Of a stretch of 49,356 bases of DNA, positions 386 to 45,793 are shown in pieces. The notes beneath the pieces were generated by a model. It was not told where the DNA came from. It did not search any database and worked only from the letters and a program-made list of their open reading frames with translations. The stretch comes from a virus (Duplodnaviria > Caudoviricetes), in the IMG/VR virus record IMGVR_UViG_3300033153_005402, positions 1 through 49,356 of that record; one strand, written 5' to 3'. Position 1 is the first letter of the stretch, and each line of letters begins with the position of its first letter. The translations under genes and the position numbers were made by a program.

Positions 386-883
386 TTACTTTTCTCCCCA
401 TGGTATTTTAAACTGTATGGGTATTTTTTTCCCGCTATTTAACACAACATCAATAGTTACTTCCAGAGTTTGATAATCTACTTTCTCTGCCTCTATCAGA
501 ATTTCCTTTGCAAGTTTAATCTGAACCATCCACCGGAGACATTCCTTGATATCATCTTTGATAAGGTTAATATGTTCCTGGATAAGTTTTAGCCTTTTTC
601 TTAACCAGAGTTTGGAACCTATTTGGTGGCCCACTAATTCTGTAAAGTTGTCTCCCCACCACCCCCGGGGGTTGTCGGTTCCATCTGGGATCTCATCGTC
701 TGGATCCGCCCGTCTGTCGGTCATAACGGAAATATAAACATAAGTTTTAATAGTATCCTCGGTAACCAAATCCCCATTTTCTAAATCAATATCAACCTTT
801 CCCGTATTGGGATCTAGCACAAGGGCGATCTCCCGGGAGATTCTTGACCTCTCGGCAAAAGTTTTATCAATTGATTTAGCCAT
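386..883 (-). CDS. Baseplate protein, Mu gp46-like
   Basis: SVMTDRRA...RGWWGD...IGSKLWL motif, located between gp45 and gp47. Confidence 0.9.
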   Translation of the reverse strand: MAKSIDKTFAERSRISREIALVLDPNTGKVDIDLENGDLVTEDTIKTYVYISVMTDRRADPDDEIPDGTDNPRGWWGDNFTELVGHQIGSKLWLRKRLKLIQEHINLIKDDIKECLRWMVQIKLAKEILIEAEKVDYQTLEVTIDVVLNSGKKIPIQFKIPWGEK

Positions 884-1674
884 TACGTTGACCTCACAAA
901 AGGAGAACCACCGGCAATAACGCCACCGGCAACCGGATCGCCCACCCGGGCCACCGCTGGCCCTCCAATGCCGCCCAAGTCAACGGAGGGGGAGATAACG
1001 CTAACCTGGGGAGCAACAACGGAAACGCTGGCCCCCCCGTTTATATTTACTGCCCCTAAAACCGGGGCTAATAAGTTTATAGTTCCTAATGGTTGCATGG
1101 TTGTTAGTGTTATATTACCTAGTGCTGTATTTACTGCAACATTTAATTGGGAGTTGACGGTTACCCCACCGGCCGGAGTATTGACCACAACGTCACCACC
1201 GGCGGTAACAGTAGCATCTCCCGCCATTGTCGTATCAAGATCCCCGTCACCATCGATCTTAATATCGTTACCTTTTACCTCAATAGAACGATCCGCCTTG
1301 AATATAACCCTATGCCCAACCCCCTCCCCGTTCTTATGGGTATAAATACAGACCTCCCCGGGCTCTAGGCCTTTATGCCTGTGCCTCTTGTCATTGGTCG
1401 CTATTATGATAGCGTGATCCCTTTCTCCGGCCGGGAAAATGGCTATACATTCGGTATCCGGAAGGGGAACGGAATTGAACCCATATTCCTGGGGGCGTTC
1501 ACAATCCTCGGTTGTCTCGCCTGCCAGAAATCCCGCCTGGATTTTCTGCATACCCTCTGAATCCTTAACCAGATTGATTACACCCCTGCCAACCATTAGG
1601 ATAATCTTTTTAATCCAGGGGTCCATTATGGTCTGTACGTTCTTACCTAGTTCTCGCCAAGTGGTTTTTATCAT
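883..1674 (-). CDS. Baseplate spike, Mu gp45/gpV-like
   Basis: QEYGFNSVP, GERDHAIIIA and LEPGEVCIY motifs, a beta-repeat C-terminus, and the AVARVGD tip motif. Confidence 0.9.
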   Translation of the reverse strand: MIKTTWRELGKNVQTIMDPWIKKIILMVGRGVINLVKDSEGMQKIQAGFLAGETTEDCERPQEYGFNSVPLPDTECIAIFPAGERDHAIIIATNDKRHRHKGLEPGEVCIYTHKNGEGVGHRVIFKADRSIEVKGNDIKIDGDGDLDTTMAGDATVTAGGDVVVNTPAGGVTVNSQLNVAVNTALGNITLTTMQPLGTINLLAPVLGAVNINGGASVSVVAPQVSVISPSVDLGGIGGPAVARVGDPVAGGVIAGGSPFVRST

Positions 1675-2789
1675 GGGTTTTTATCCGGATCATATTCGGT
1701 TAAGGATTTTAGTTTCTGCCTCTGGCCGGTCGCCTTGTCGCTGGCCGTCTTTACCTCTTCTGGTGCCGGGGGGAATTGATAGGTTATCGGATGAACCAAG
1801 GTTATATGAGTCTCAAACCCTAAACCCTCTGATATTGTAAAGTTCACAGAGTTGATTAGATAAACTCCGTCAATACCAACAAACCTATCTTTTACCCGCA
1901 CCAATCTATTTATTTCCCAGGGGGTTTTGTCCTGGCGGAACCACCCGGAGGTTTTATAAGTTAACGTTCTTGACTGACCGGCCCTTTGGTTGGCCTCAAA
2001 GTTTGCCCGGTTCTGCATCCCCTGAATGTCTGTTTTAGAGTCTGCTATTATCACTAGCGGCCGCCAGCGGTCAACGTCTGAGTCAACGGCGATAGCGGAA
2101 CCGGAAATATAATCATTAAACGTTCTAAAGTCAGATGATTTATTCTGGCCCTTCACAATATAGGTTGAATGCCTTTCTGAGTTGTTTTGTGATATGCCAC
2201 CCCTCTTGACATTCCTTCCTAATTCAAGAACATCAAGAATGGATGTCGTTCCCGCCCGGTCTAAAATCAGATTGCCTATGCCGTCCGATAGCATGAGGCA
2301 ATTGTTTTGTTTGCACAACCGGGTAATAACATTGAATATCGTTTCCCCCTCATTAACCCGGAAGGATTCCAGATCCTTTAACCCTGGATTGGAAACCCTG
2401 TTATCTACCAGGATTCCAAACTTGCCTACCATGTCCTGTATTATCTGGAAAGTGTTTTGATTACGCCATTGCCCAAAACCCCGAATATCATAATGAGGAC
2501 ATTTAACCAAGTCCCCCGTCTTATCCATGCCGCTAACCGCTAGATTGTGGGATACCGTATCATAATCAATTGGCATATCTATGATATAGCCTTCAATTAT
2601 TTTATTACTTTGTAAATAAATAGAGGCGAGATCACCTACTTTGAAATTGTATAACCCCGGAGAAGGCGGTTTGTCTGCCGCTACCGTCAAGTCAAAGGTA
2701 GAGGATAATTGTTCCATTGATTTAACAATACTAGCCGTTGTCCAACCGTAGGTGTTAACCCCATTAACTTTTAATACCAATTCGGTCAT
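1671..2789 (-). CDS. Baseplate hub, Mu gpP/gp44-like
   Basis: GW..ASIVKSMEQL, GMDKTGDLVKC and RWRPLVIIAD motifs, plus synteny. Confidence 0.9.
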   Translation of the reverse strand: MTELVLKVNGVNTYGWTTASIVKSMEQLSSTFDLTVAADKPPSPGLYNFKVGDLASIYLQSNKIIEGYIIDMPIDYDTVSHNLAVSGMDKTGDLVKCPHYDIRGFGQWRNQNTFQIIQDMVGKFGILVDNRVSNPGLKDLESFRVNEGETIFNVITRLCKQNNCLMLSDGIGNLILDRAGTTSILDVLELGRNVKRGGISQNNSERHSTYIVKGQNKSSDFRTFNDYISGSAIAVDSDVDRWRPLVIIADSKTDIQGMQNRANFEANQRAGQSRTLTYKTSGWFRQDKTPWEINRLVRVKDRFVGIDGVYLINSVNFTISEGLGFETHITLVHPITYQFPPAPEEVKTASDKATGQRQKLKSLTEYDPDKNP

Positions 2790-4024
2790 GACGATAAAAC
2801 CTCTAGGGTTTCCCCGGCCGGAAGATACCCGGGATGAGTTATTGTTTTATTTCTATCAATAATCTCCTGTTCCCTGGTAACGTCATTGTATAACCGATAG
2901 GCTAAACCCAAGGCGTTCTCTGCCGTTCCCTGGCCCAATTCATAGGGCACAACCCTTGCCAGATTCGCCCCCTTGTCATTCAGAGATCGGAACGTCTGAG
3001 ATCTTAGGGTTTCCAGAGATTGGATCTTATCGTCCATGTCATCAAGGCTACCCATTTCTAAAATTAATTCCTCGAAAATATCCGCCAACTCTTCCCGAAC
3101 ATTCGCCAACTCTTCATAAGAATCATAATCAATAGAAACAGCATTTTTGCAGGCCTCGGTTAGTGCCAACTCCCGGAACATAAGAGAGATAGCCGCCTGA
3201 TTGTCGGCCTGCCTCTGGCGGTTGGCGGTTGTTACGTTAACGGGTATCAATGCCCCACCATAAATACTGACATCCTCTGATCCATTTGGTTTGCCAAAAT
3301 CATTTAGCGCAACAATGGATCGGTATGGTGCCAGTTTGTCAACTCCGGTTAATCCGGACATCTGGGAAAGAGTACCGGAAACAGAGTCAAACAAAGTATC
3401 ACCCTGTATTACATTGTCTGACAAATCGGCAATCTGTAAATCAATGGCCTCTTGGAAATCTGGATTCTGGCCGGTAAACTTGGTTGCCTCTTTTATCATA
3501 TTAAAACCTGATAGGGTATCTTGTTCCGCCCCGCCTCTAAGGTATTCAAAACCGGAGGCGTTGTATGCCAGCAAAAATACCGATTGCGCCTGACTAACAT
3601 AATCTAGGGCGGCATCCAATGTGAGACTATCTTGATCCTCGGTTGCGGCCGGGAATTCCGCCTCCCCCGTTTCCACAAAGGTTATATTGAAATCGGCAAT
3701 GTTCCCCCGGTCGGTTGATTCCGATTGGGTAAACTCCATTACGTTAACATTCAGGTTACCCCGATAGGGATGAACAAGGATTCCCGATTCCCCTTGTTCC
3801 AGGGCATCAAGTAACGAATCCCTCTGATCCATGTAATCCGGGCCCTGAACATAGCAGGCAACGGTAAACTGCCTGGGCCGCCTTCCCAGATCTTCTGATT
3901 GGACCTCTTCCCTCAAGGGGAATTCATGAACAACAGTTTTCCGGCCGCCTGAGTTTTCAATGCTGGTCCAACGGAAAGGGATACCCCTAAAGGAAGGCGT
4001 GAAAAGATTTCTTTTCCATGGCAT
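2786..4024 (-). CDS. DNA circulation/tail protein, Mu gpN/gp43-like
   Basis: SFRGIPF...GGRKTVVHEFP..EDLGR and LVHPYRG motifs, with C-terminal LAYRLY...HPG. Confidence 0.92.
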   Translation of the reverse strand: MPWKRNLFTPSFRGIPFRWTSIENSGGRKTVVHEFPLREEVQSEDLGRRPRQFTVACYVQGPDYMDQRDSLLDALEQGESGILVHPYRGNLNVNVMEFTQSESTDRGNIADFNITFVETGEAEFPAATEDQDSLTLDAALDYVSQAQSVFLLAYNASGFEYLRGGAEQDTLSGFNMIKEATKFTGQNPDFQEAIDLQIADLSDNVIQGDTLFDSVSGTLSQMSGLTGVDKLAPYRSIVALNDFGKPNGSEDVSIYGGALIPVNVTTANRQRQADNQAAISLMFRELALTEACKNAVSIDYDSYEELANVREELADIFEELILEMGSLDDMDDKIQSLETLRSQTFRSLNDKGANLARVVPYELGQGTAENALGLAYRLYNDVTREQEIIDRNKTITHPGYLPAGETLEVLSS

Positions 4025-4037
4025 GAGCTACCCCCTA

Positions 4038-5630
4038 TTAGCCAAAGGCATGGGCCCCGGCCGATATATTAACATCGGTATTACCCGTATTGGTTATCTT
4101 TTTGATTCTCGCACCCTTGGCCCCCTCCCCCTGGAGGATAACCCGGACCTCACCGCCTACCCGGTTATTGATATTCATACTTGGTTGGGAAATATTTAAT
4201 GGTTGTGCCGACTGAAATGCTCTAGCTCTAGCGGGGTCGGCTGGCAATCCCTCATTAGAACCACCACCAACGAAAACATCTTTGAATGCCCCGGCAATGC
4301 TACTACTAAAGGATTTTATTTTCTCTCCAACAAATGCGGTTACTTCTTTTAATCCCACGAGAAACCCATTCTTGAAATCTTGCCACCACTGTTTTCCAAA
4401 GTCCCATGCCGCACTTGTCACCGTACCTAGTATTTTGTTTAATGCTAAGGATATTTCTATTGCCCATTGCGCTAGGCCAACATCCCCAATCCTAATTAAT
4501 TGATCTGATACAACACCTAATATTGCTCCCAATGCCTTAAATGTTGCGACCACGGCGATAATTGCGCCAGCCGCAACGGCTGAAAACACCTTGGTTAAAT
4601 GGGCTAGAAATATAATTAGAAATTCAATCTTAGAACCTAGATCATCTGTCGGTCCTATTATTCTTTTAATGACAATAAACATATCTGAGAAGTTCTGTAC
4701 TACCGGGCCCATTACCCTTTTCAATGTGTCAACAAACTTAATCAATCCTGCCTTAATCAATCCCTTATTTGCGCCAATCCATTTAGAGATATTCATGGTT
4801 ATCTTTTCTATCTTGGGCAAGAGTCCACTTATTAGATTTCCAAAGTTAGCAAAGACAACCTTTTTTAATATGTTAAGGCTATCGTTTAATTTCTCGGATG
4901 AGGCTATCGTATCCTTATCAATAATCAATCCCATTTCGTGTGCCTGTTTAGCAAATTCTTTTATCTGTTTAGAACCGCCTTTCATGGTATTTGCCAGGGC
5001 GACACCTTCACTATCAAAGAATTTAAAGGACAATCTTACCTTTTCGGATTCATTTTCTACCGCCGCAATGCCATCTGCCACTTCAAGAAAAAGGGCCTCT
5101 GATGTTTTCAATCGGCCCTCATTGTCCTTCAAAGATATTCCCAACTGTTGAAAGGCTGGCAATGCCTCCCCCATGCCCTGGGCGGCCTCTGCCGATCTCC
5201 GGGTAAACCTCTGAAATGCCATGTCCAGAGTTTCGGTTTTAACTCCGGTCTGTTCCGCCGCAAACCTTAATTCCTGTAAAACGTCTGTTGTAATTCCTAG
5301 TTTGCTGGCTGTCTTGCCGATTCTATCGGCGGTCCCTGCAAATTTAAAAACCGCCGCCGATGCCGCCGCAAAGGCAACCGCTGTTATCTTCCCCAATTTG
5401 ATTATAGATCTACCGATGCCGATAGCCGCCCTGCCTATTAATCTTCCGGCGCTCTTGAAAGACGTTACAAACTTATTATTGATAGCCGCGATTGTCAACC
5501 GTTTAAAGGCGGTTGTTACTCTCTTGAGAGGTGCGGTTAATTTGGCTATGCCCTTGCCAACCTTCTTTATCGGTTGGGTTGCCTTGTCGATCATGTCAAA
5601 AACAACTGATAAAGTAAATTTCTTAGCCAT
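4038..5630 (-). CDS. Tail tape measure protein (short, 530 aa)
   Basis: Ala/Lys-rich helical sequence with hydrophobic stretches, directly after the tail chaperone. Confidence 0.85.
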   Translation of the reverse strand: MAKKFTLSVVFDMIDKATQPIKKVGKGIAKLTAPLKRVTTAFKRLTIAAINNKFVTSFKSAGRLIGRAAIGIGRSIIKLGKITAVAFAAASAAVFKFAGTADRIGKTASKLGITTDVLQELRFAAEQTGVKTETLDMAFQRFTRRSAEAAQGMGEALPAFQQLGISLKDNEGRLKTSEALFLEVADGIAAVENESEKVRLSFKFFDSEGVALANTMKGGSKQIKEFAKQAHEMGLIIDKDTIASSEKLNDSLNILKKVVFANFGNLISGLLPKIEKITMNISKWIGANKGLIKAGLIKFVDTLKRVMGPVVQNFSDMFIVIKRIIGPTDDLGSKIEFLIIFLAHLTKVFSAVAAGAIIAVVATFKALGAILGVVSDQLIRIGDVGLAQWAIEISLALNKILGTVTSAAWDFGKQWWQDFKNGFLVGLKEVTAFVGEKIKSFSSSIAGAFKDVFVGGGSNEGLPADPARARAFQSAQPLNISQPSMNINNRVGGEVRVILQGEGAKGARIKKITNTGNTDVNISAGAHAFG

Positions 5631-5793
5631 GTTCCGCCGCCTTTTCTTCTTTCTTGGTTATATAATTATGTCCCTCAACCCAGAAAGATAAGTCGTCTAT
5701 TATGTCCCAGGAATCCATATTGTCAGAAATACCAAACCGCTGGCCTACCGTCCACACCCCTACTTTCCAGTTAGGGGGGATACTTCTAAAAAA
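5623..5793 (-). CDS. -1 frameshift extension of the tail assembly chaperone (gpGT/E' type)
   Basis: Slippery T TTT TTA at 5793-5787. The -1 frame is open (FRSIPPNWKVGVWTVGQRFG...WVEGHNYITKKEEKAAEHG*) to a TAA at 5623, overlapping the tape-measure start. Confidence 0.75.
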   Translation of the reverse strand, partial: FFRSIPPNWKVGVWTVGQRFGISDNMDSWDIIDDLSFWVEGHNYITKKEEKAAEHG

Positions 5794-6095
5794 CTTGACA
5801 GAGCCTCAAACTTTATCAGATCTTCATAGTCGATCTGATTGATAGTTGATTCCGGCAATTTGTTTTGAACGGCTAGGATTATGGCTATCTTATCTTCTCC
5901 CGTATTATAACTAGCGGCCGCCCTTATTTGCCCCAGATTGGGCCGATAAAACTTCAATTCATATAACGGATTATTTTCATGGTATATCGGCCTTGATAAC
6001 TTGATAGTCAAATACCCTGGTTTCTTGGGCAAGGGTATCTCTTCCGTATGTTCTGGTATTGGGGCATGTTTAGGTTCTGGCATTTCTGGATTCAT
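5760..6095 (-). CDS. Tail assembly chaperone (Mu gp41-like)
   Basis: IKLSRPI...LKFYRPNLGQIR...LPESTINQID motif, between the tube and tape measure genes. Confidence 0.85.
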   Translation of the reverse strand: MNPEMPEPKHAPIPEHTEEIPLPKKPGYLTIKLSRPIYHENNPLYELKFYRPNLGQIRAAASYNTGEDKIAIILAVQNKLPESTINQIDYEDLIKFEALSSFLEVSPLTGK

Positions 6096-6110
6096 GTTTA
6101 TTCCCTTTTC

Positions 6111-6497
6111 TTAACTTTCAGGATTGATTAGTTCTTCCGCCTCATCGCCAAAGAACACAAAGGGAGTATCACCTTCCCCGGCGGTTACTTCGGCCTCACC
6201 ACTACAAGAGGCATTGCGGATAATATAAACTTTTCCCAACTGTCCCTTGTGGGAAACAGATTCAAAGGTAATAACCCCATTGGTTACATCCTTGATATCG
6301 GAAAGTTTTATATTAGATTTGTCGGTAACGCTAAAGGTTACCCTGGAGGCCCTGGGAGTTTCGGAAAACCCGTCAAGGCCGGTTGATCCCATAATGGGTT
6401 CTCTGGTAACCCCACCAAGATCACAAGTTGCCCCTGGTTTAGACCGTACTATTTTACCATTTACTCTTATATTCGCCATTCCTGTGACAATAGCCAT
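6111..6497 (-). CDS. Tail tube protein, Mu gpM-like
   Basis: TGMANIRVNG...LGGVTREPIMG..GFSETP motif, follows the sheath gene. Confidence 0.88.
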   Translation of the reverse strand: MAIVTGMANIRVNGKIVRSKPGATCDLGGVTREPIMGSTGLDGFSETPRASRVTFSVTDKSNIKLSDIKDVTNGVITFESVSHKGQLGKVYIIRNASCSGEAEVTAGEGDTPFVFFGDEAEELINPES

Positions 6498-6517
6498 TTA
6501 TAACCCCCTTTCAGGTA

Positions 6518-7990
6518 TTACAGTTTATACTTTAGTTTCATTGCCAACACCCTTAACTGATTAACCAGATCAGGGGGGCCCATCATGTCAACTCGGTTTC
6601 TATCTTCCGCATTGCGGATCGCCACAACCTCATCAACAAACTGACCGGCTACGTTTTCCACCCACCCCTTGTCCTCAAATTCTCCCATGATAGCGATCAA
6701 CTCGGTCTTAAGATCGATAGGCCGGACAATGGGAACGTTTGCGATAACCCGGGCGGTATCATCGGCCAGTTTATGGCGGGGATATTTAGACTTAACCCTG
6801 AATAACCACTGTTCAGAGATAGCCGCCAGAGTTGCGCCAGTGTTAATATCCAGATAAGAAACATCCGGGGCCCCGCCAGCATTCTTTTGATAGGTGGTAA
6901 TGTCTCTCTCAATAAATGCCCTGTCGCTCTCAACAACAAAGGTAGCGATCCCGTCATGTAACAGGGTTTCTCTTTCAGTTTCGATAAACCGATCAGCATG
7001 AACGGGCGGCACAACTCCCTCAAGTTCAACCGTCTGGTTGGGCCTGGAGGGATCAAGGTTTAATTCCCGGGCCTCGGTCGCCATATAAATGGCGGCGAAT
7101 TCCTCTGCCGGAGTAGGTACTTTGTAAAGGCCCATAACAGAGGACCATGGATTATTTCTGAGGTTCCCGTAGGTTGTGAGATTGGCTAAGGTATCAGAAT
7201 GGGCGGAAAAGGCTAAGGTATAATTCATAACCATTCCATCCCACCGATCATCTAACCAATCCTCAAGTATAACCATGTTAGCGGCATCGCTGTAAGGGTG
7301 TCCCAGGTAGCGGAAAGATTCTTCCCCGATAGTATCAAGGGCATCCTGGATATCGGGATCGTTTAATCCGCTGGCCATGGGGGTTATTGCAATTGAGATA
7401 CCGGCGGCGGTTTCGTCACCAATATTCATATTCTCCCGCATGTCAACACCATTCCCCAGAGTCCCGTCATTCCTGGCGGTTATGGTAACGTCACCGGCGG
7501 CATTACTGGCGGTTACTGGCAAGGTGACATCCTCATTGATAGCCGCCTCTATGGCATCGCCAACCTCGGAATTAGTATCATTCTTGAATACTGGAACGAT
7601 AAAACGGCGGCCTGCAATGTAGAGATAAACTGCCCCCTTTTTTGATACCGATCCGGTTACCGCAATTTCTCCGGTTGCCAACACCCCGGAGGCGTGATCG
7701 TCCAGAGAGACACAATACAACTCTGTTTTGTTATTCGCCTTTAGGGCCTTCTCAACCATCCGGGCCAGCATTGATCCGGTTCCAAAAAATACCTCCCCCT
7801 CTTCTTTAGACCTAACGGGAGTAAGAACCTTTTCCGCTACTGTTCCGGTTGATAGCCTTTGCCCAATCAAAATCATTCTCTGGCGCAATGCCAGAAGGCC
7901 GGGGATAGCATCGGTATTGTCGATTTCTACCCGGGTTCCCGGAACCCTGATATCTGGGTTGATCTGTAAAAAGGTAATATTCTCGGCCAT
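6518..7990 (-). CDS. Tail sheath protein, Mu gpL-like
   Basis: DIRVPG..VEIDN, FGTGSMLARM, DPSRPNQT, ITTYQKN, YPRHKLADD and PDLVNQLRV motifs. Confidence 0.95.
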   Translation of the reverse strand: MAENITFLQINPDIRVPGTRVEIDNTDAIPGLLALRQRMILIGQRLSTGTVAEKVLTPVRSKEEGEVFFGTGSMLARMVEKALKANNKTELYCVSLDDHASGVLATGEIAVTGSVSKKGAVYLYIAGRRFIVPVFKNDTNSEVGDAIEAAINEDVTLPVTASNAAGDVTITARNDGTLGNGVDMRENMNIGDETAAGISIAITPMASGLNDPDIQDALDTIGEESFRYLGHPYSDAANMVILEDWLDDRWDGMVMNYTLAFSAHSDTLANLTTYGNLRNNPWSSVMGLYKVPTPAEEFAAIYMATEARELNLDPSRPNQTVELEGVVPPVHADRFIETERETLLHDGIATFVVESDRAFIERDITTYQKNAGGAPDVSYLDINTGATLAAISEQWLFRVKSKYPRHKLADDTARVIANVPIVRPIDLKTELIAIMGEFEDKGWVENVAGQFVDEVVAIRNAEDRNRVDMMGPPDLVNQLRVLAMKLKYKL

Positions 7991-11489: not shown

Positions 11490-12884
11490 TTAACTTCCGC
11501 ATTTGCCGATTTTGTAGGCATTGGTTCTCTGGGGAGCGGCACCATGACGCATGGTGGCCTGAAAGAGAATATAAGGGAATGCCTTGTAGGGATTCTGGAG
11601 AACGGTAATTCCCCTGCGATCCACAATCTTATAGGCCTGTTGCCAATCGCCAAAGGCAAATGCCAACTGGTCAACGGCGGGGGCTGGCATGGCGGCGGCA
11701 AGATTCATGGGATACCCTAAAACGGTAGCAATGGCAATGCCACGGGCCTTCAACTCGGGCTGAAAAATGTAATTGCCTGCCTCATCTTTGATTTTAAAAA
11801 CGGCCCTTAGTCCCATTCTCTGCATCAACCAACTGGCGTTACTGTGAAAGAAATCTTCAAGGCCGGTCTGAATATCCACAAGGCCCTCATAGGTTGCGCC
11901 GTCATCATCGCCGGTGAGAATTTGTTCAACCTGTTTCCCATATTCGGTTCCTGCCGGAAGGCCAAGAATCCCGATTGGTTTGGTATTTCCATCGCCAGTA
12001 ATAAAAGAAACTGCCTCTTTACGGGCGAAACGTTCTCCAAGTTTCCGGCCAACATAGGCAGAAACATTGATGCTGGCATCTTCCAGAAATTGGCTGGTTA
12101 CCTTGGGGAAGGCATAGCATTCATGAACGGGAATAGTCAGTTTGCCAAATTTGCCTGCCTCGGTTTCTGTCCGGGCGGAAATTTCATTAGCATACAATGC
12201 CTCAAATTCTGCATCCTCGGTCGGTTCCTCAAACTGTTTACTACCAATGGTAATAACTTCTGACAACCTTCTGAGAGGGGACGATTCATAGCGCCGTTCC
12301 ATAATCTGATCGGACATTTCCACGGGGCAAACATACCCACCATCGGGGCCAACACCAACGGACAAGAATTTCTTATCTTCTGGTTCCACGTTCTCTTTGC
12401 CTTTGCGGAGAAACAGATCGTAAGACTTGCAATATTGGGCGTAATCTTCGCCTTTAAATCCGGCAACGTCCGAATCTAACTGAAGGCGATCCATGACGGA
12501 TTTAGAAGTCGTGAAAAACTCGGCGGCCTTTGCACCAAGTTCTCCCGCCTCTTTACTCACTTCCCCGGGCACCCGGTTCATGGCAGTTTCAATACTATCT
12601 ACCCTTTTGGCGGCATCGTCCTGTAACTGCTGGACCTTGGCGAGAACGGCGGTTTCCTGTTTCGCCATCTTCTCTTTCATCATGGAATCCATACCCGTTT
12701 TCTGGGCCTCATCGTTGGTAGTCTTGTATGCCTCCCATTCGCCCTTGAAAGATTCAAACTTTTTATTAACGTCTTTGCCATACTCTTTCATCTCATCGGT
12801 TACTTCATTTTCAACATCGTCCTGCTGTTCCCCTGCATCTTTCACTTCATAGCGGGGGGGTAAATTGGTAATGCGTTTTTTCAT
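11490..12884 (-). CDS. Major capsid protein, HK97 fold
   Basis: DGGYVCP, SPLRRL, FITGDGNTKPIGIL and FAFGDW motifs with an N-terminal coiled-coil delta domain. A GGAGG RBS supports the start at 12884. Confidence 0.95.
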   Translation of the reverse strand: MKKRITNLPPRYEVKDAGEQQDDVENEVTDEMKEYGKDVNKKFESFKGEWEAYKTTNDEAQKTGMDSMMKEKMAKQETAVLAKVQQLQDDAAKRVDSIETAMNRVPGEVSKEAGELGAKAAEFFTTSKSVMDRLQLDSDVAGFKGEDYAQYCKSYDLFLRKGKENVEPEDKKFLSVGVGPDGGYVCPVEMSDQIMERRYESSPLRRLSEVITIGSKQFEEPTEDAEFEALYANEISARTETEAGKFGKLTIPVHECYAFPKVTSQFLEDASINVSAYVGRKLGERFARKEAVSFITGDGNTKPIGILGLPAGTEYGKQVEQILTGDDDGATYEGLVDIQTGLEDFFHSNASWLMQRMGLRAVFKIKDEAGNYIFQPELKARGIAIATVLGYPMNLAAAMPAPAVDQLAFAFGDWQQAYKIVDRRGITVLQNPYKAFPYILFQATMRHGAAPQRTNAYKIGKCGS

Positions 12885-12885
12885 C

Positions 12886-13620
12886 TTAAATTTCCTCCAA
12901 TCGTTTTCTTGCGTTTCTAATTGATAACAATATTTCCTTTGCTCCCCGGACATCCCGTCCGTTGAAGTCATGCCGGTTAGACAACCAAGTCGCCATTCTC
13001 TTGGCTATGCCTGCCTCCCGCAAGGCAAATTCCAATTCTCTGGGGGTCTTGGCCTCAAATATACCAGCATCTTTAACCCTGGTTATCTTTGCCCGGGTAT
13101 TAGCCGGAAAAGTAACCGGGGATATTTCCCACAAATCAAGTTTGTTGAGATACCGTATTCCCTTATCCGAATCCCATTCAACATCCTTTTCATAATTCTT
13201 TATGAAATAACCAATGGACAATCCCCCTATAGCCTTTCTTTTCATTAGGGCATGAACCCTAAAGGCATCCGGCACGTTTGGAACTCCGGTGTCAACGGAT
13301 TCATCTTCATCAGTTTTGATAGTCTTGATAGTATCAAGAATCAATTGGCCCTCAACATAGAGGCCCTTTTTATCTTCATGTACATCGGTATAGTATCCAA
13401 TTGGATTTGAAACGTTATGTTGCCACAACATCCTAATGCCTCTGGGCCCTTTTCTTTTTATGGATTCTTTAAATGCTCCCTTGTTTACAACATCACCGAC
13501 AAGATCTCTATTGCCGAATATAGAACCGTACCCCTTAAACGATCCATCCTCGCTGATATCAGATTCCTTTAATTCAAAAGTACATTCGATGATATCTGGC
13601 GAATAATCTTTTTTTAGCAT
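12886..13620 (-). CDS. Prohead protease, HK97 family
   Basis: FKGYGSIFG..D, MLWQH, GLSIGY and LWEISPVTFPAN motifs. The RBS favours a start at 13620. Confidence 0.95.
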   Translation of the reverse strand: MLKKDYSPDIIECTFELKESDISEDGSFKGYGSIFGNRDLVGDVVNKGAFKESIKRKGPRGIRMLWQHNVSNPIGYYTDVHEDKKGLYVEGQLILDTIKTIKTDEDESVDTGVPNVPDAFRVHALMKRKAIGGLSIGYFIKNYEKDVEWDSDKGIRYLNKLDLWEISPVTFPANTRAKITRVKDAGIFEAKTPRELEFALREAGIAKRMATWLSNRHDFNGRDVRGAKEILLSIRNARKRLEEI

Positions 13621-13663
13621 TTGCGCCCCCTTTATGGTCTTAATGATATATACGGTTTTTTTT

Positions 13664-14518
13664 TTAGTCAACTAAAGTTTTAATACTAAAACATCTACAG
13701 TTGATAATTTCACTAGCCACATTCTCCCCCGTTGCATTTGGATCACCGGGATAGAGTAATTTTACCCTCCCCACTTGGTAAAGATCTGCTAGGGGAATGC
13801 CGCTATCAGAGTAGCGTGATTCCGCCGCAAGGTGGCTATCTCTTACCCTGTCGTCACTGGCAGTCACCCATTCCTTTAGAAAGTTCCCACCCGTTGCTAT
13901 GGCCGCCTGTTCGTTGCCGTAGTTCTGGGCATTGTGAACCTCTGTTCGGGCTATCATCTGAGCCCTGTTCCTCGCGGTTATCACCCGGGAGATCCGGCGG
14001 TCGCCAACTCTGACAGATACAGGGAGATCCCCTATGGTATCCTTGATCTTTTCCGCGATCTGTCTAGGATTCAAACCCTCTTGTAATCCCCTCATGACCA
14101 CCCTGCGGATCTTTAACTTGGTTGTATTGACGATTTCAACAACCTCATTAGCCGCCCATAGTGCTACAAACTCCTCTAGGTTTTCTTCAAAGATTGTTTC
14201 CGCACCCTTCCGGAATATGCCCGTCAATACCCCTTTCCTAGCATCGTTGTATTCTTCAAATAGCCATTGGGCATTGAACATGGCGGTTTTCTTAAATAGG
14301 GCAATGGCGGTTTCCTCCCACTGTTCATTTACAGTATCAATGATATCTAGTGCCTCGTTTAGATCTCCTGTTTCCTCGTAGGCACTAGCGGCTAGATTAG
14401 ACTGTTTGCTAATCAATCTGGCATAGGGTTTGATCGCCGCCTTCTCAAACTTGGCATTAGCCCGGTTAATCCGGGTTACCATCTTCCGTTTCTCAAACAG
14501 GCTAGTTAGATTTAACAT
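13664..14518 (-). CDS. Minor head protein, Mu gpF/SPP1 gp7-like
   Basis: RAQMIARTE...KEWVTASDDRVRDSH...YPGDP...INCRC motif. Confidence 0.92.
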   Translation of the reverse strand: MLNLTSLFEKRKMVTRINRANAKFEKAAIKPYARLISKQSNLAASAYEETGDLNEALDIIDTVNEQWEETAIALFKKTAMFNAQWLFEEYNDARKGVLTGIFRKGAETIFEENLEEFVALWAANEVVEIVNTTKLKIRRVVMRGLQEGLNPRQIAEKIKDTIGDLPVSVRVGDRRISRVITARNRAQMIARTEVHNAQNYGNEQAAIATGGNFLKEWVTASDDRVRDSHLAAESRYSDSGIPLADLYQVGRVKLLYPGDPNATGENVASEIINCRCFSIKTLVD

Positions 14519-15866
14519 TGGTTTCTAATGGCAGTCTTAACATTTTCTCGAATTCAATTAATCCTTTTTCCCCGCCTGCCCGGGCGTTCTTGGCCGCTGT
14601 CTCTGCCTCTATGTCAACCTCCCCCGCCAACTCAAGAGGGATAACCCCGGCTGGAATGAGTATCAGATCGCCACCAACAACGGAATCATAACCCGCCAGC
14701 TCCCGTTTCTCATTAATGCTAAGAAAACTTGAGGTCTGGGCCCTTATCCAAGAGGTATCACGGCGACCGGCCAGGGCGGGAACCCCGGATAGATCATAAT
14801 CCATAACCAGATTACCCCGGCGGAATTTAGGTAACAACCAATGGTTATATTCTGATCTGATTATATTCAAATAAAATATTACTGGATTCTCCCATAATGC
14901 CTGCCATGCTAATTCCATATTAGAATAAGTATTTTCCCCCTTGATTCCTACCACCTGGGCAGGCACCCGGTAGGCAGTTGCAATAAACCGGGATTGGGCA
15001 TCAAGTCCATTCAACCAATCCAGATCTTTGGGGCTGATTGATTGAGCAAAGAATTTCAGGCCGCCCTCAAGGACAAGGGGCCGCCCTGCATTCATGGCCC
15101 CCTGATATCGTTCTTCTAATTCTTTTTGTAGGGTTTCCCGTTGTTCCTCTTCTAGCTCCCCTTCCGTTGTCAGATAACCCGCTGGCCTAGCGTCATTGTC
15201 CAGGAGTTTCTTTGACCATGTATTGATTGAGTTGTAGATGTCAATGTTTCTAGCGGCCGCCTGCATTGGTGATAACCCATAATAGGAATTCGTTGGATGC
15301 CACAACTTGAGATGTTTCATCATGGATTCCCCAGAGGGTTGGGTAACCTCCCATTTAATTTTATCGCTACTCCCCCCCGCGCTGTATTCATAGCGTGATA
15401 TCCCAAAGGGACCGGGCACGATATTCATATAATCTGGTCGCTGGTTATATAGTTCAACTGGTATGCCCTGGTTAGTCCCGGTATCTGCCCCCTGGGCATT
15501 GGTATAATTATTGCCCGATATCAAAAGATAACTGATTGTCTCTGCGATGAATGCTGGCCATCCCTGATTAGGATTGGGGCGATCTAAAAGTTTCTTTATC
15601 GGATCGTCTGGATTCAATACCTCTTTCCTTGTCCCGTCCCTTGCTACCTCATACAAATACCAGGGAACAGTTGATACCGCTGATGCGATCTCGTTAATGC
15701 AACGGAAGGCAACAATACATTTTTCGTATCCCTCTTCTGATAACTTGGTGTAATTTGTGGGAGTCCACAATGCCCGGCCTAAATTACTCCCGGCGTTTAA
15801 TATGGCTGTTACATTTGATTTGGTCCCACCAACAAGTCTATTTACAAGTCGCCCCCATATACCCAT
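14502..15866 (-). CDS. Portal protein, HK97 family
   Basis: LLDRPNP, YYGLSP, NAGRPLVLEGG, TYSNME and LSINEKRE motifs. Confidence 0.95.
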   Translation of the reverse strand: MGIWGRLVNRLVGGTKSNVTAILNAGSNLGRALWTPTNYTKLSEEGYEKCIVAFRCINEIASAVSTVPWYLYEVARDGTRKEVLNPDDPIKKLLDRPNPNQGWPAFIAETISYLLISGNNYTNAQGADTGTNQGIPVELYNQRPDYMNIVPGPFGISRYEYSAGGSSDKIKWEVTQPSGESMMKHLKLWHPTNSYYGLSPMQAAARNIDIYNSINTWSKKLLDNDARPAGYLTTEGELEEEQRETLQKELEERYQGAMNAGRPLVLEGGLKFFAQSISPKDLDWLNGLDAQSRFIATAYRVPAQVVGIKGENTYSNMELAWQALWENPVIFYLNIIRSEYNHWLLPKFRRGNLVMDYDLSGVPALAGRRDTSWIRAQTSSFLSINEKRELAGYDSVVGGDLILIPAGVIPLELAGEVDIEAETAAKNARAGGEKGLIEFEKMLRLPLETNVKSN

Positions 15867-15881
15867 GGATGCCCCCTTTGG

Positions 15882-17117
15882 TTACCATGCCCTAACCCTT
15901 TTCTGCCCGGGTTTCTTAGCTGGCCTGAAAATTTCTGTTCCATATCTAATAGCCGCCATAGAGTGATCGTCATAATCAATCGGTTCCTCTAACACGTTTC
16001 CGGCCCTATCTGTTTTATTGCGATATTTTTTAATTTCTTTTATCACGTTAACGCATTCTGGGTGTATATACCATTTAATTCCCCTCAACCAATTGTTTCC
16101 GTAGTTAACAGAGTCGGCCCCTTTTATGGCCCCACGGATATTAAACCTTTGATCTTTGATTTCTTCAATACTTTTTGGTTCCGCTGAGTCAGCTATTGTC
16201 AATCCGTTGGGTTCCATGAAACCTCCTTCATAGGCCATCTTGGATAACTGATCGTTGGTCTTTCTCTCAGTATAGATTTCATCGAGTATATATAACTCCC
16301 CGTCTTTCCAACCCATCTTGATCCAGGCGGCCGGTTCAACAAACCCAAAGTCTAGTCCATAGAAGATCTTTTTATAATCCTCTGGATCGCGGGATACCTC
16401 TTTGATTACCCACTTATCATATATCTTGTGTTTGAGTTCTCCCCATTCGCCCTTGGCGTAAATCTTCCAGGTCATTTCGTCTTTGTATCTGAGGTTCTCC
16501 AATACCTCTTTGTATTTCTCATCCAAGAAAGGGTTATCCTCATAGGTTGTTTTCAATACTGAGGCATCGGGGTTTACCTTCTTAATGAATTCATCCTTGG
16601 CCCAAAAATCTTCCGAGGGGTTGAAGGTCATCATGATCTGATAATAAGAATCAAAGGGGCCCCTCAACCTCATGTCGCATTGCAAGTAATCCTCAAAGGT
16701 AAATTCCGTTGCCTCTTCCAACCATATCCCGGTTACACCCTCAATTGATTTAATCTTCTCCGGATCGTCAAGGCCGGAAAACATAATCTGAGAACCATTG
16801 TCAAAGTCAATTAGCAACTCTTGTTTCTTAACCTTGGAAATAGATTGTAAACCCCATTCTCTCCGGTAGTTTTTGGCCAGGGCAAAGGTTGATTTCCTAA
16901 CTGCCGGTTGGGTTTTACGCAAGACTAGAAACTTGTGTTTAATCTCTGTCTCATATCCGGCGAGTATCCGGGTTAGCATCTTCTGGCAGGCCGCATGGGA
17001 TTTACCGGAACCGGCCCCGCCGTACAAGGTAGCATACCTGTTTCTATCAAACATAAAGGGCCAATAAACGGGGGCTACGGCATCCCGGAGGCCGTCCATT
17101 TCAATTGGATCAGCCAT
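15882..17117 (-). CDS. terL: Terminase large subunit, PBSX family
   Basis: Walker A GGAGSGKS, Walker B IWLEEA, TFNP, GLDFG, ADSAEP and DDHSM motifs. Confidence 0.96.
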   Translation of the reverse strand: MADPIEMDGLRDAVAPVYWPFMFDRNRYATLYGGAGSGKSHAACQKMLTRILAGYETEIKHKFLVLRKTQPAVRKSTFALAKNYRREWGLQSISKVKKQELLIDFDNGSQIMFSGLDDPEKIKSIEGVTGIWLEEATEFTFEDYLQCDMRLRGPFDSYYQIMMTFNPSEDFWAKDEFIKKVNPDASVLKTTYEDNPFLDEKYKEVLENLRYKDEMTWKIYAKGEWGELKHKIYDKWVIKEVSRDPEDYKKIFYGLDFGFVEPAAWIKMGWKDGELYILDEIYTERKTNDQLSKMAYEGGFMEPNGLTIADSAEPKSIEEIKDQRFNIRGAIKGADSVNYGNNWLRGIKWYIHPECVNVIKEIKKYRNKTDRAGNVLEEPIDYDDHSMAAIRYGTEIFRPAKKPGQKRVRAW

Positions 17118-20431: not shown

Positions 20432-20926
20432 CTATTTATCGTAATAGTCCCAAACATATTTCATTAACGGATACCAGATTACAAAGTTAATACCGGCCAC
20501 AACTACCACAAGTAATCCGAATCCGGCATACCAACCAAAGGTTATCTTTTCCTCTTCCATGTTAACTCCCTTCCAGTTTCCCAAAACACAATGTTCATAT
20601 CTCCATTTCTCTATTCTTTCCAACTCCCTATATTCTTTCATGAATTCATCGGACAACCACGTTTCCCCATAGGAATATTTTGGGCATGGCCTAATATCGT
20701 TTGGTATATCCTGAAAACTCGGGCCGCCTTTTAGAGTTTCCATTTTGTCTGCCCATTCTGATTTACCGCCAAATTCCCGATCCGCCTCTTCCTGAGTTTT
20801 AATAAATATAGATTTAGGGCAAGGCGGGGGGCAACTCGCCCCCCTGGGACCGTTCATCCTGGAGGGGATGATCGTGTTATTAGACCTTGCCGTTTTATTT
20901 ATCTGTTCTTCCATGGTTTCCGCCAA
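20432..20926 (-). CDS. Mosaic accessory protein with sheath-like and terminase-like segments and a C-terminal TM
   Basis: See findings. An internal RBS and ATG at 20560 precede the TM part. Confidence 0.7.
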   Translation of the reverse strand: MAETMEEQINKTARSNNTIIPSRMNGPRGASCPPPCPKSIFIKTQEEADREFGGKSEWADKMETLKGGPSFQDIPNDIRPCPKYSYGETWLSDEFMKEYRELERIEKWRYEHCVLGNWKGVNMEEEKITFGWYAGFGLLVVVVAGINFVIWYPLMKYVWDYYDK

Positions 20927-21252
20927 GATTGTAATGGTTTGTTCTCCATGCCCTTTAGTTTCTCCATGGTCTGATCCAGGGATTCCAGGATAACCGAATC
21001 AATTACCTCCCCGGTCTTGGTATCTATCGCCGCCCTCAGATACTCTATGACGTTTGATTGCATGTGGGCCCTTAACCTTTCCTTCTGGATAATCGCTAAC
21101 CGGATATATTCCATGGTCTTTAGAATGGCCGTGTAATCCAGACAACAGGGGATATTCCCGGGCATTAGGGGCCCCTCCATTTTCAGATCTTCCAGTAATT
21201 TTATTACCGTCTTTAACTTCTTTTCATAGGGCATCTGACTAAAAAGGGACAT
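20899..21252 (-). CDS. Hypothetical protein
   Basis: Overlapping operon packing. Confidence 0.65.
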   Translation of the reverse strand: MSLFSQMPYEKKLKTVIKLLEDLKMEGPLMPGNIPCCLDYTAILKTMEYIRLAIIQKERLRAHMQSNVIEYLRAAIDTKTGEVIDSVILESLDQTMEKLKGMENKPLQSWRKPWKNR

Positions 21253-23338: not shown

Positions 23339-23573
23339 TGTTAATCCCTTTCTTTAGATATATTTTTTCTCTGAAACTTATTACAAATCTATCTCCTATT
23401 TGTTTGCATTCATCTACTGTGAAATCATGCTGTATGTTTTCTGCCAAGTGATTCACTACATCATTTCTCATGTGTCGTATGGTTTCATTGGTCATTCTTT
23501 TGTTCACATACTTTTTTAATACGTTGTCCATCAGGATCTTTGTCGCGGCATTAATAAAATCCTCATTTTTCAT
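23325..23573 (-). CDS. Hypothetical protein (possible sheath C-terminal-like mini-domain)
   Basis: Operon packing, see findings. Confidence 0.6.
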   Translation of the reverse strand: MKNEDFINAATKILMDNVLKKYVNKRMTNETIRHMRNDVVNHLAENIQHDFTVDECKQIGDRFVISFREKIYLKKGINNENS

Positions 23574-23811
23574 AACCAGAACCCAAATCCTTTTCGTAAT
23601 AATGCCTTGGTTTGATCCTGTTCTTAATCCTGGGTTTAATGGGCTCGGGGGGTTTGGTGTCTCTGGCGATGTCTGCCGGATCTTTGAACGGGGCCGGATC
23701 TTTGATTGGGGCCAACCCCATGATTGCCCTTTTCTGGTTTACCGTCAACCACGGGGGAACCGGCGGAAGGGGAAGAGGGGGCGGCGGGGCTGGCGGTCCT
23801 ACTAAATGCAT
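23563..23811 (-). CDS. Pro-rich protein with a portal-like segment
   Basis: WLTVNQKRAIMGLAPIKD flanked by Pro-rich linkers. Confidence 0.6.
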   Translation of the reverse strand: MHLVGPPAPPPPLPLPPVPPWLTVNQKRAIMGLAPIKDPAPFKDPADIARDTKPPEPIKPRIKNRIKPRHYYEKDLGSGYEK

Positions 23812-24300: not shown

Positions 24301-24717
24301 CTAGATTCCTTCCAACTTGGCCATAACATCAATGATGCCCTTTTCGTTATCCTTCTTTTTTGATTCCTCCCTAGTCTTTTCCTCTTTTACCTTTCTCTCC
24401 TGGGCCGCCATTTCCGCCATTAATCTTAGGGCTGTTCTCTGGCATGGCATGGGATTGGTTTCTTTAACCGCCTCCCCCTCACAGATACCATCTGTTTTAA
24501 TAACATACTCGGAATTCTTGAATGATATCTTCCGTTTAATATCGCTCAAGGTTTCCGGATGATAAACCCTTAACTGCATTGGAAACCCTGTTATTGCATC
24601 CGGTATTTCCACAAACTTTCCGGTATAAACCCTATCCATAATTCCCTTAAAGGCCTTTTCGTCAACCTCTTTTAGCCCTATTCCTGGTACTCTCTTTGAT
24701 TCCTTTAGCTCAACCAT
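24301..24717 (-). CDS. Hypothetical protein
   Basis: Operon packing with ruvC. Confidence 0.65.
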   Translation of the reverse strand: MVELKESKRVPGIGLKEVDEKAFKGIMDRVYTGKFVEIPDAITGFPMQLRVYHPETLSDIKRKISFKNSEYVIKTDGICEGEAVKETNPMPCQRTALRLMAEMAAQERKVKEEKTREESKKKDNEKGIIDVMAKLEGI

Positions 24718-26603: not shown

Positions 26604-27218
26604 TTATTGAATAAGGGCCTTTTTTTTTAACTTTCTCAAATCGGAGAAATCAGAGAAACTCGGATGTGCAACAGGAACGGCGGAGTCCTGTTTTATTTCT
26701 TTACCTTCTTTATCTTCTTTTCCTTCTTTTACTTCTTTATCTTCTTTAGATCTATAGTGTGTGTGACCCTCTGTGTGACCCTCTGTGTGACCCTCTGTGT
26801 GACCCTCTGTGTGACCCTCTGTGTTATCTTTCCATATTGAATTTTGATAACTATGCCAATTTATTATTGTTACAATAGTATAGTGTGCGTGACCCTCTGT
26901 GTTAATCACCCCTAATTTTTTAAGTGTTTTTAGGCTAGTCACTGTGTTACTGTCTGTGTGACCTAGATATTTTGAAAATTTCCTTGTGTAAATCAATGCC
27001 TGTCCAGGGGTTAAATCAACAGTATATCCTCTACCCTCAACATCCTTTGTCTCGTTTTTGTAAGATGCCTCGAGTAATAACTCTAAGAAAAAGTATCTAA
27101 TTTTTTTATTGGGATGGTTCCAGATCTTTGATTCTCTTATTGCTCTATGGAGCAAGAGAAAACCTAAACCACGGCCAACTTTTAATTTTCTCTTTTTTGC
27201 CCTACCCTTCAAAACCAT
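26604..27218 (-). CDS. Phage replication initiator (lambda O/DnaD-like winged helix)
   Basis: GFLLLHRAI...IW...LLLEA...PGQ...YTIVTIINWHSYQ motif, with internal iterons. Confidence 0.8.
   Translation of the reverse strand: MVLKGRAKKRKLKVGRGLGFLLLHRAIRESKIWNHPNKKIRYFFLELLLEASYKNETKDVEGRGYTVDLTPGQALIYTRKFSKYLGHTDSNTVTSLKTLKKLGVINTEGHAHYTIVTIINWHSYQNSIWKDNTEGHTEGHTEGHTEGHTEGHTHYRSKEDKEVKEGKEDKEGKEIKQDSAVPVAHPSFSDFSDLRKLKKKALIQ
26761..26824. repeat. Iteron-like tandem repeat (GTGTGACCCTCT x5), probable replication origin
   Basis: Five perfect 12-bp units inside the initiator gene, a variant copy near 26887-26902, and an adjacent pyrimidine/AT-rich tract. Confidence 0.8.
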
Positions 27219-31547: not shown

Positions 31548-32060
31548 ATGGCAATTACCCATAGGCAATTATTCTTTATTAGCACAAACCAAAAGTTTTA
31601 TATTCAATGTAACCAATGCGATCACATTGAAATTATTCGTTTAAGTAATGAAATGTATAATCCGGATTACCGCAATAGCCATTGTTCCCATTCTTATTGG
31701 GAATGCCCAAGATGCGGGGCCAAATATGCTACCGAATGGGATCCGGAATATAAGAAATCCGCAAGGTTTATAAATAAATTTAAATTAGATTCCGTTGCCC
31801 TGACCAATAATCCGGTCAACCCAAACTGTAAAATAAAGTCTGTTGATGGTGTCCCCGTTCCGGATACCCCGGAGATCCTAACCGATCTCTGGAATTTCAA
31901 GGGGGATGTTGTGGCAACAGAGGCAACCTGTCCCTGTGAATGTCATCCGGAAATTGCGAATCACAAAATGGGAAGATGTCCAATAGAAGTATTAGAGGAT
32001 AAACTAGGGGAATTCCTGACCAAGTGGGAAGAGGCGATTAAAGAAAAGTTTGGGGGTTAA
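31548..32060 (+). CDS. Zn-ribbon protein with a prohead-protease-like segment
   Basis: CNQC and CPRC motifs, then KLDSVALTNNPVNPNCKI. Confidence 0.7.
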   Translation: MAITHRQLFFISTNQKFYIQCNQCDHIEIIRLSNEMYNPDYRNSHCSHSYWECPRCGAKYATEWDPEYKKSARFINKFKLDSVALTNNPVNPNCKIKSVDGVPVPDTPEILTDLWNFKGDVVATEATCPCECHPEIANHKMGRCPIEVLEDKLGEFLTKWEEAIKEKFGG

Positions 32061-39827: not shown

Positions 39828-40096
39828 TCTGGTTTATCCTTTTTGCCTTCTGCCCAAACCCTAAGAGATTTTATATTATTTTTCAATAGCAATGCTGTTC
39901 CCAATCGGCGTTCCGTTCCCTGGTCCGGGTAAAGTTTCTCCCTGGCCATTTGCTGATCAAAGTACTTGCTGGCTATTGGTTCCATTTTAATCATGGCCTT
40001 TTTAATATTGCCCGGCGGAAGGTAGCAACCTCCCAGGTAGAGGCAAACAACCCCGAACAAGATCCATCTAAAGTATCTCTTTTTCGATATTCTCAT
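39824..40096 (-). CDS. Small lipoprotein
   Basis: Basic n-region, hydrophobic h-region and lipobox LGGC. Confidence 0.65.
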   Translation of the reverse strand: MRISKKRYFRWILFGVVCLYLGGCYLPPGNIKKAMIKMEPIASKYFDQQMAREKLYPDQGTERRLGTALLLKNNIKSLRVWAEGKKDKPE

Positions 40097-40502
40097 TTAA
40101 CAGAACGTCCAATCTCTGGGATTGAGTTTCAAGTTTTTTTTCCGTATATTGCAGAACCACCCGGGAAAGATCCTCCCTGGTAATCGGTTTGGTTATTATC
40201 GCTAGGGGTTCTTTTAATCCTCTAAATTTCATTTCCTCTTTTACTCTCCTGGTTTCCAAGGCGGTTAAAACTATTATCTGGTATCTATGCCCGTTCAGTT
40301 TGTCCATGAATTCGTAACCGTTCATTAGGGGCATCATGATATCTAATATAATTAAATCTACCTCCCCGCCATGGTCCTTTAGGTACTCAATACTCGGCAC
40401 TGGATTGGAGAATTCAACGGCATTAAATCCCATTGATTCGATATGTTTATTTAGAATCGTTCTTAATGCGGAATCATCTTCTATTATGACTATGTTTTTC
40501 AT
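40068..40502 (-). CDS. Single-domain response regulator (CheY-like receiver)
   Basis: IIEDD, DLIILDIMMPLMNGYEF, IVLTA and ITKP: all phosphoacceptor-site residues present. Confidence 0.92.
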   Translation of the reverse strand: MKNIVIIEDDSALRTILNKHIESMGFNAVEFSNPVPSIEYLKDHGGEVDLIILDIMMPLMNGYEFMDKLNGHRYQIIVLTALETRRVKEEMKFRGLKEPLAIITKPITREDLSRVVLQYTEKKLETQSQRLDVLLNENIEKEIL

Positions 40503-44657: not shown

Positions 44658-44680
44658 GTGTTACCCCCTTTGGTATTTGG

Positions 44681-45793
44681 CTAACTGGTTATCAAAACAC
44701 TTGATACACGTGCCGCCGCCGACTGAGAATTATATCTAACTTGAACCTCCCACATTGCCTTTCCTGCCGGGATTACTCCCGTTATCGGTAAGGTATGCAT
44801 CGTTGGTAATACGTCTGTAATGTTTAATTTCTGGGCTATGACTACCGCATTTGTAAAATCATAGATCATAATATCCTGGCCTCTAGATCCATTGCTGGTC
44901 CAGATGATAGCGGTAATATCAGAGGGAGTCATAAATGTTGAACCAGGAAAAACAAATCTATTAAGAGTTGTATAATTTACCGCTGATTTTGAAACGAATG
45001 GATTATTACCGTCATTCAGATCGATATTAAGAGCTAATCCCATACTTGAATGTGTATGATCCCCCTGGGCTACCTGATCCGATCCCGTTCCGATATCGCC
45101 ATTGGTTCCCAAGTTATCCTTTGTAACCTGTAGGGCGGCCTCCCCGTCTGTATATTTCGCATGGTGCGCCGATGCGTTACCCGCATGGGCGGTAATGTCT
45201 GAATCAATTTCTCCGGAAATATCAGAATAGGTTTTACTCCCCGCACCGTCCACAATGGCGATAGCAAGATCAACCCGATCCCCTGCCTCCCCTGAATCGT
45301 AATCAAGAACGGCCATATATTGAGGGTGATCGTTAGCGTCTAAATCATCGAGATTACTATGGGATACCAGGGTTGCCATTAACACCCAGGTTGATCCGTT
45401 GTGGATATAAATCTTGTTCTCATCTTCAACGGTCAGGGCGAATCCCTCATCTGGAATAACCTCTACCCAGGAAACGGTATCAAGATCATAGGTGTAAATA
45501 TAATCTGTTGTCCAACCGTTGGCCGTTGCCGATGCGATATAGCGATCCCCGTCTGAGGGACCAACCGGAAGATTAGGAGTAGGATCATAAATAGATAAAA
45601 CCGAATTCTGCCAATCAACACCGGAACCAGATCCGCCCCCGCCTGCCTCTATGGCCTCTTGAATATCTTCCCAGGTGACACTACCCCCGGCCCCGTCATC
45701 TAGGGATTCTGCTATATCAACCTTGCCGGAATTATTGGTATCGTATGTCTTTTTATCTAAATTTCCATCGTCAAATATTCCAGTATAACCCAT
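44681..45793 (-). CDS. Tail fibre-like protein, paralog of 43101..44657
   Basis: GDRYIA...PDEGF...DENKIY, VAQGDHTH, and the shared C-terminal RFVFPG...IYDFTN...WEVQ domain. Confidence 0.72.
   Translation of the reverse strand: MGYTGIFDDGNLDKKTYDTNNSGKVDIAESLDDGAGGSVTWEDIQEAIEAGGGGSGSGVDWQNSVLSIYDPTPNLPVGPSDGDRYIASATANGWTTDYIYTYDLDTVSWVEVIPDEGFALTVEDENKIYIHNGSTWVLMATLVSHSNLDDLDANDHPQYMAVLDYDSGEAGDRVDLAIAIVDGAGSKTYSDISGEIDSDITAHAGNASAHHAKYTDGEAALQVTKDNLGTNGDIGTGSDQVAQGDHTHSSMGLALNIDLNDGNNPFVSKSAVNYTTLNRFVFPGSTFMTPSDITAIIWTSNGSRGQDIMIYDFTNAVVIAQKLNITDVLPTMHTLPITGVIPAGKAMWEVQVRYNSQSAAARVSSVLITS

Follow-up and report, generated by a model that had tools for sequence, protein, structure and literature searches.

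A minus-strand open reading frame (ORF) at 20432..20926 carries stretches resembling parts of a large terminase and of a tail sheath, and it raises two questions: whether these resemblances are real, and what a small early gene might do with them. The window analysed is the whole virus record, which is 49,356 bases long and has 114-nt direct terminal repeats. It encodes a PBSX-type large terminase (TerL; 15882..17117) and a Mu-type tail sheath (6518..7990), both recognised with Pfam, PHROGs and NCBIfam, and the ORF belongs to a run of short minus-strand genes that overlap one another and lie between an MT-A70 methylase and an SbcC-like ATPase. The initial annotation had described the ORF as an array of two sheath-like segments (A and B) and one terminase-like segment (C), derived from two source proteins and ending in a membrane tail; every sequence string that it quoted is present at the position given for it.

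The genome as a whole combines HK97-type head genes (11490..15866) with a Mu-type contractile tail (386..7990) and the PBSX-type terminase. Its nearest terminase relative is 48–51% identical and its nearest non-identical sheath 43%, and the phage is therefore far from known ones; a viral contig of 9219 bases (L004) encodes a sheath 100% identical to its own. Six 12-nt tandem repeats (26748..26836) inside a DnaD-like replication gene (26604..27218), with an extra copy at 26879, are likely origin-like iterons. A stand-alone response-regulator-like gene, 40068..40502(-), is found together with small membrane genes where the tail module ends, which is unusual in a 49-kb phage, and two tail-region genes within 43101..45793(-) have in common a long, similar domain and His-rich 11-residue repeats (33 nt; 44316..44414).

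The ORF has 164 open codons, of which the public gene call takes the 160 that begin at ATG 20914. This ATG has a weak ribosome-binding site (RBS), and the upstream gene does not stop until 20899, an overlap of a kind seen elsewhere in the run. Codon use is gene-like: residues 5–122 score 0.064 in frame and the remaining five frames are negative (−0.33 to −0.73), the range for 16 small neighbour genes being −0.11 to 0.35. The ORF contains no DNA-level copy of any of the phage's own genes (the longest matches are 13 nt), and the terminase-like segment is therefore not a fresh duplication. A 7-bp hairpin (20854..20871) lies in the leader; on the plus strand it carries GGAGG, followed by the start codons of an antisense ORF of 39–41 aa (20868..20993). 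The features discussed below are listed in Table 1.

Table 1. Coordinates of the ORF, its segments, and candidate motifs in two sister genes. Residues of the ORF are numbered from TTG 20926.
Feature	Position	Strand	Residues	Details
Orphan ORF	20432..20914	-		160 aa from ATG 20914; 164 aa from TTG 20926
First PCPK	20813..20824	-		Second PCPK at 20678-20689
Segment A, weak likeness to Mu-type sheath residues ~56-76	20750..20803	-	42-59	13.0 bits
Segment B, marginal likeness to Mu-type sheath N-terminal residues 4-13	20690..20719	-	70-79	Ungapped, 16.9 bits
Segment C, probable copy of the lid subdomain of PF04466/PBSX-type large terminase	20564..20677	-	84-121	Gapless core aa 90-121 (20564-20659)
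Strong RBS of internal start	20566..20574	-	118-121	Also codes these final residues of the lid match
In-frame 42-aa tail	20432..20560	-		Own start ATG 20560; one predicted TM helix, aa 136-154
Candidate portal C-terminal motif in 82-aa Pro-rich early ORF	23563..23811	-	20-43	phrog_12, E=0.039
Candidate prohead-protease catalytic-serine region in 170-aa Cys-rich early ORF	31548..32060	+	61-105	phrog_1028, E=0.0095

Segment C is, on profile evidence, very probably a true homologue of the lid subdomain of PBSX-type terminases. A profile of 10 GTDB terminases, selected by PF04466 alone, matches it with P=7e-6, a score that none of 5000 shuffles and none of 431 bacterial windows of 164 aa attained. 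A second profile of 15 diverse terminases, with that of Bacteroides phage BS-TP2 left out, gives P=1e-4, and a 119-sequence profile of terminases of the phage's own type gives a weak match (P=0.02); the three differently built profiles agree on a single gapless register. When every stop-to-stop frame in the genome is ranked (834 in total), the ORF is second after the real TerL (E=0.004–0.007), and among 48 small genes compared with the TerL profile it is the best and the only one with P below 1e-4, a level attained by 0 of 1920 shuffled genes. The match weakens under harsher controls: P is 1.8e-4 without the RBS-coded residues 118–121 and 1e-4 without the nearest profile member (0 of 5000 shuffles in each case), and it is 0.003 with both removed (19 of 5000). 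In direct comparison, tblastn of a 42-aa piece against 50,697 phage records returned six weak records, one of them an annotated terminase (from BS-TP2) in which the lid is the part matched, with 12/31 residues identical (E=4). A pattern scan of viral contigs, run with a partly query-derived pattern and covering 33 of 64 parts, gave 92 confirmed loci; the best 80 are all terminase lids (80/80), the top one 14/31 identical and gapless, and none of these 80 is a lid-only protein.

These figures also bear on a further explanation, chance or convergence. An amphipathic helix with Gly-x-Trp at its end would then match the lid profile fortuitously, and the likenesses to sheath would be noise. The segment was picked out by eye from small genes totalling about 4900 residues, the harshest lid control leaves only P=0.003, the best tblastn E-value is just 3–4, the own-type TerL profile score is reached by 111 of 5000 shuffles, and the sheath scores are matched by 5% of bacterial windows. 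Set against this are the common register of the three profiles, the genome-wide E-values, and the 14/31 identities to a real lid, though the latter were found with the partly query-derived pattern; we consider this explanation quite unlikely.

The extent of the match can be set against a solved structure. The phage's own TerL aligns to Sf6 gp2 (PDB 4IDH), its nearest solved relative, whose lid is delimited as N173–A210 with a glutamate at E187 (Table 1 of PMC6379665, available in part). With a 20-residue numbering offset deduced from residue names in the accessible portion of PMC5389665, E98 of the ORF would fall on E187, and the match covers about one entire subdomain. The lid glutamate, a Tyr, the invariant Gly and the next Trp are retained, and the invariant Asn that precedes the helix of the lid has been lost. 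The Walker A/Walker B ATPase core is absent from the ORF, with no Pfam, PHROG or NCBIfam match, and a Walker-A-like reading of residues 53–67 was rejected as chance-level (78–159 of 600 shuffles). No RNase H-like C-terminal nuclease domain was found in it, a TM helix following the lid instead, and none of the subtilisin-like, beta-sandwich and C-terminal domains of the ~490-aa sheath protein is present. The ORF is neither a terminase nor a sheath, and with a lid but no ATPase core or nuclease it cannot package DNA.

Segment C had been paralleled with the phage's own TerL, and here the family likeness stands but the specific one does not. BLASTP reports nothing between the two, only 4/34 residues are identical in register as against 14/31 with a foreign terminase, and the own TerL ranks 74th of 144 by best ungapped placement; by these comparisons segment C is closer to the terminases of other phages. 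A free lid of foreign type might bind the terminase ATPase ring of a co-infecting phage and poison its assembly while sparing the divergent enzyme of the phage itself. Lid subdomains do touch neighbouring subunits (PMC6379665 and PMC5389665, as far as their accessible text goes), and the low rank of the own TerL is in keeping with such selectivity. A membrane tether and a position in an early operon are not obviously required for packaging interference, however, we found no paper on a mini-protein of this kind, and a lysogeny or satellite context is not established; we regard this role as rather improbable.

Sheath-derived origins for segments A and B are less secure. A 24-sequence Mu-type sheath profile, with placement of the segments permitted in any order, has its top two ungapped matches where the initial annotation had located the likeness, residues 70–79 at profile positions 4–13 and residues 42–53 at 56–67, so that the reversed order relative to a sheath holds as described. 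The scores themselves are marginal. That of segment B is reached by 37 of 3000 shuffles of the core, and the summed score of A and B by 18 of 3000 shuffles of residues 24–122 and 89 of 3000 when the whole ORF is shuffled. Among real sequences, 1 of 47 other small genes and 5% of bacterial windows (42 of 862) reach this sum. With Mu-type sheath profiles the whole ORF gives P=0.12–0.15 and ranks only 122nd of the 834 genome frames; the pre-cut sheath-like pieces give P=0.016–0.056 (0.056 for A). Segment B is identical to single sheaths at up to 7 of 10 positions and has a likeness to the beginning of Mu gpL. In segment A the invariant residues of the sheath motif (second Gly, Leu and Met) are not preserved in register. 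The claimed likeness to the phage's own sheath was not recovered (p=0.28 and 0.50 for A and B). Profiles of T4-like/eCIS-like and P2-like sheaths (cl0 and cl1) were tried without a match, 145 and 436 of 600 shuffles doing as well, and DUF3383 was not found by a first-look family search of the genome, a search that passes over weak sites. Ten residues carry little weight, and we put the chances that segment B is a real sheath-derived motif at even; for segment A such an origin is somewhat doubtful.

The picture of an array drawn from two proteins therefore survives in one half: the lid withstands shuffles, real-protein nulls and six-frame ranking, but the sheath contribution is borderline (P ~0.006–0.05 depending on the null). 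The PCPK tetrapeptides proposed to precede segments are indeed present twice, but a repeated 4-mer of any kind occurs in 897 of 10,000 shuffles and in 2 of 47 other genes, and the repeat is chance-level. The scrambled segment order had further been held to argue against a pseudogene, and this argument depends on the borderline sheath matches, the least secure part of the array.

For the membrane tail, its RBS and its start codon, the initial annotation holds. Residues 136–154 form a hydrophobic stretch (mean hydropathy 2.14), and the RBS before ATG 20560 is purine-rich, like the sequences upstream of many genes in this genome. A single-sequence AlphaFold (AF2) model of the ORF has a mean pLDDT of 55 and a pTM of 0.28; it is confident on the tail only, where it forms a helix, and of low confidence for residues 5–120. 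Two products are possible, a presumed tail-anchored protein of 160 aa and a membrane protein of 42 aa.

Relatives of the ORF were sought widely, and its protein appears to be an orphan. A homologue search recovered the protein itself alone (1 of 21 candidates), and comparison with 1.84 billion representatives gave only the self-match; the word-indexed database search covered proteins of at least 90 aa. None of 17 candidates among longer proteins and none of 47 stretches from viral contigs proved related, and 2 of 250 metagenome stretches matched, both seemingly by chance: the match of locus L236 is limited to the Pro-rich leader of the ORF, and locus L237 was rejected on inspection. No relative of segment C was found in plasmids, nor of the 42-aa tail in phages. 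Searches of Pfam, PHROGs and NCBIfam with the whole ORF and six pieces reported no sheath or terminase family, segment A showing a weak match to Phage 80a gp11 / phrog_2222 (E 0.05–0.09). The ESM Atlas gave no usable feature match, and a single match in a sequence search of the PDB was judged to be chance. Homologues with other combinations of segments, which the initial annotation had envisaged, did not come to light, as no relative of the ORF was found at all.

Orphan status is what would be expected of a recombination relic, in which a stray piece of a foreign terminase gene inserted ahead of a small membrane gene and the two became one continuous frame. What matters would then be the 42-aa tail, or else some new, unrelated function, and the lid likeness would be a decaying trace of the past. 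The strong RBS serves the tail alone, and the lid likeness stops exactly within it; the loss of the invariant lid Asn and the low-confidence model of residues 5–120 point the same way. Some features sit less easily with decay: 122 codons remain open with a positive codon score, the retained stretch fits the limits of a subdomain (although detection, too, is easiest where conservation is high), and in sister genes it is likewise the best-conserved motifs of other morphogenesis proteins that are retained. We consider a relic somewhat unlikely, and it ranks close behind the reading that we favour.

That favoured reading, which we hold tentatively and at a probability of roughly 35%, is that the ORF product may be a membrane-tethered, non-catalytic terminase look-alike that acts as a decoy. 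It builds on the open frame, the lid homology, the missing Walker B, nuclease and remaining ATPase parts, and the internal RBS. In this reading a copy of a foreign-type lid shares one frame with a small predicted membrane protein, and the long form would be made through translational coupling to the upstream gene. The product would appear early, ahead of the real terminase; if the lid fragment folds or binds as a lid, its partner could be a host protein that recognises terminase, presumably a sensor, which the look-alike would tie up. There is precedent for the parts of this scheme. Terminase triggers Avs1-3 and Upx according to the accessible text of PMC13601566. Phage proteins are also known to counter defence by competing with a trigger: DSAD1 occupies the site of the trigger on its sensor (PMC11087589, likewise in part). 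The sheath-like motifs may, at about even odds, be further borrowed pieces; the decoy reading does not need them.

Several observations count against a decoy. Avs2 grips the whole ATPase fold over ~2800 Å2, an area much larger than 35 residues can present, and Ksap1/2 and T4 vs.8, terminase-like proteins that stand alone, switched Avs2 on, not off (both from the portion of PMC13601566 available). Since no relatives were found, there is no sign of selection on the ORF. The weak RBS of the long form counts against this reading too, as do the harsher lid controls (P=1.8e-4 and P=0.003) together with the lost Asn, and the silence of unfiltered Pfam, PHROGs and NCBIfam scans on the lid. Neither a lid-only nor a multi-fragment mimic turned up in our literature search, outside of which lie subscription journals and supplements. 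A decoy made of a trigger fragment is not described in the accessible portions of PMC5727402, 10.1101/2023.04.06.535777, 10.64898/2026.06.04.730250 or 10.1101/2025.06.06.658234, and a sheath-sensing STAND is not reported in that of PMC13581612, where the sheath is named only as a possible target.

Two sister genes would count in favour of a decoy. The portal motif in the 82-aa ORF is the best of 48 genes (P=0.0024), and with a GTDB-built portal profile its score is reached by 0 of 3000 shuffles; tblastn with this ORF had no match in phages. The protease motif in the 170-aa ORF, which is preceded by a zinc-ribbon-like part, has P=1e-3 (0 of 3000 shuffles); 52 of the 56 records found with this ORF by tblastn are Streptomyces phages, and those annotated among the matches listed are capsid maturation proteases. 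Each match is modest, and together they suggest a habit of borrowing. Two other matches near 5e-4, at 39543 (capsid profile) and 29304 (TerL), look like coiled coil or chance and were set aside, as was the first 20 aa of 24301..24717(-), which by eye resembled the sheath N-terminal strand and gave no score against three sheath profiles. Extended further, the borrowing idea would have early proteins built from the most conserved morphogenesis motifs, the lid and two sheath motifs in one anchored chain and the portal and protease motifs in two sister genes, as a multi-epitope decoy set soaking up host pattern-recognition sensors before the late proteins are made; this extension is unlikely.

The bacterial sensors that recognise terminase, portal and further core proteins of phages are now well described, much better than the ways in which phages might hide proteins that they are unable to alter. 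A gene carrying only a foreign lid offers a small, cloneable test of trigger fragments as decoys, or as poisons of a rival motor. If the sheath pieces are real they would point to a sheath-recognising partner, a mere possibility in the available text of PMC13581612; if the gene is a relic, it would show that phage accessory genes are assembled out of core-gene scraps.

Compared with known proteins, the ORF is best filed among stand-alone terminase-derived accessory proteins. With PBSX-type TerL (PF04466/TIGR01547) it has in common a lid aligning gaplessly over residues 90–121, with the glutamate, Tyr, Gly and Trp shared; it differs from the complete enzyme (PF04466 + PF17288) in having no Walker B, ATPase core, nuclease or invariant Asn, and in its TM tail and early-operon position. 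The Mu-type sheath (phrog_165; Mu gpL, PDB 9KHY) is resembled by two short motifs at its residues 4–13 and ~56–76; this likeness is borderline, the order is reversed, and the ORF lacks several invariant residues as well as the strand that follows the first motif. DSAD1, a rival of the tail tube for DSR2 in an SPbeta-type phage, provides the model for the mechanism proposed here, although in the accessible text of PMC11087589 it is not described as a copy of the trigger, and its trigger and sensor differ from those proposed for the ORF. Closest in kind are T4 vs.8 and Ksap1/Ksap2, which like the ORF are accessory phage proteins resembling part of a terminase and for which an anti-defence role has been proposed; by the available account in PMC13601566 they retain the beta-sheet ATPase core (vs.8 with both Walker motifs) and activate Avs2, whereas the ORF has only the lid.
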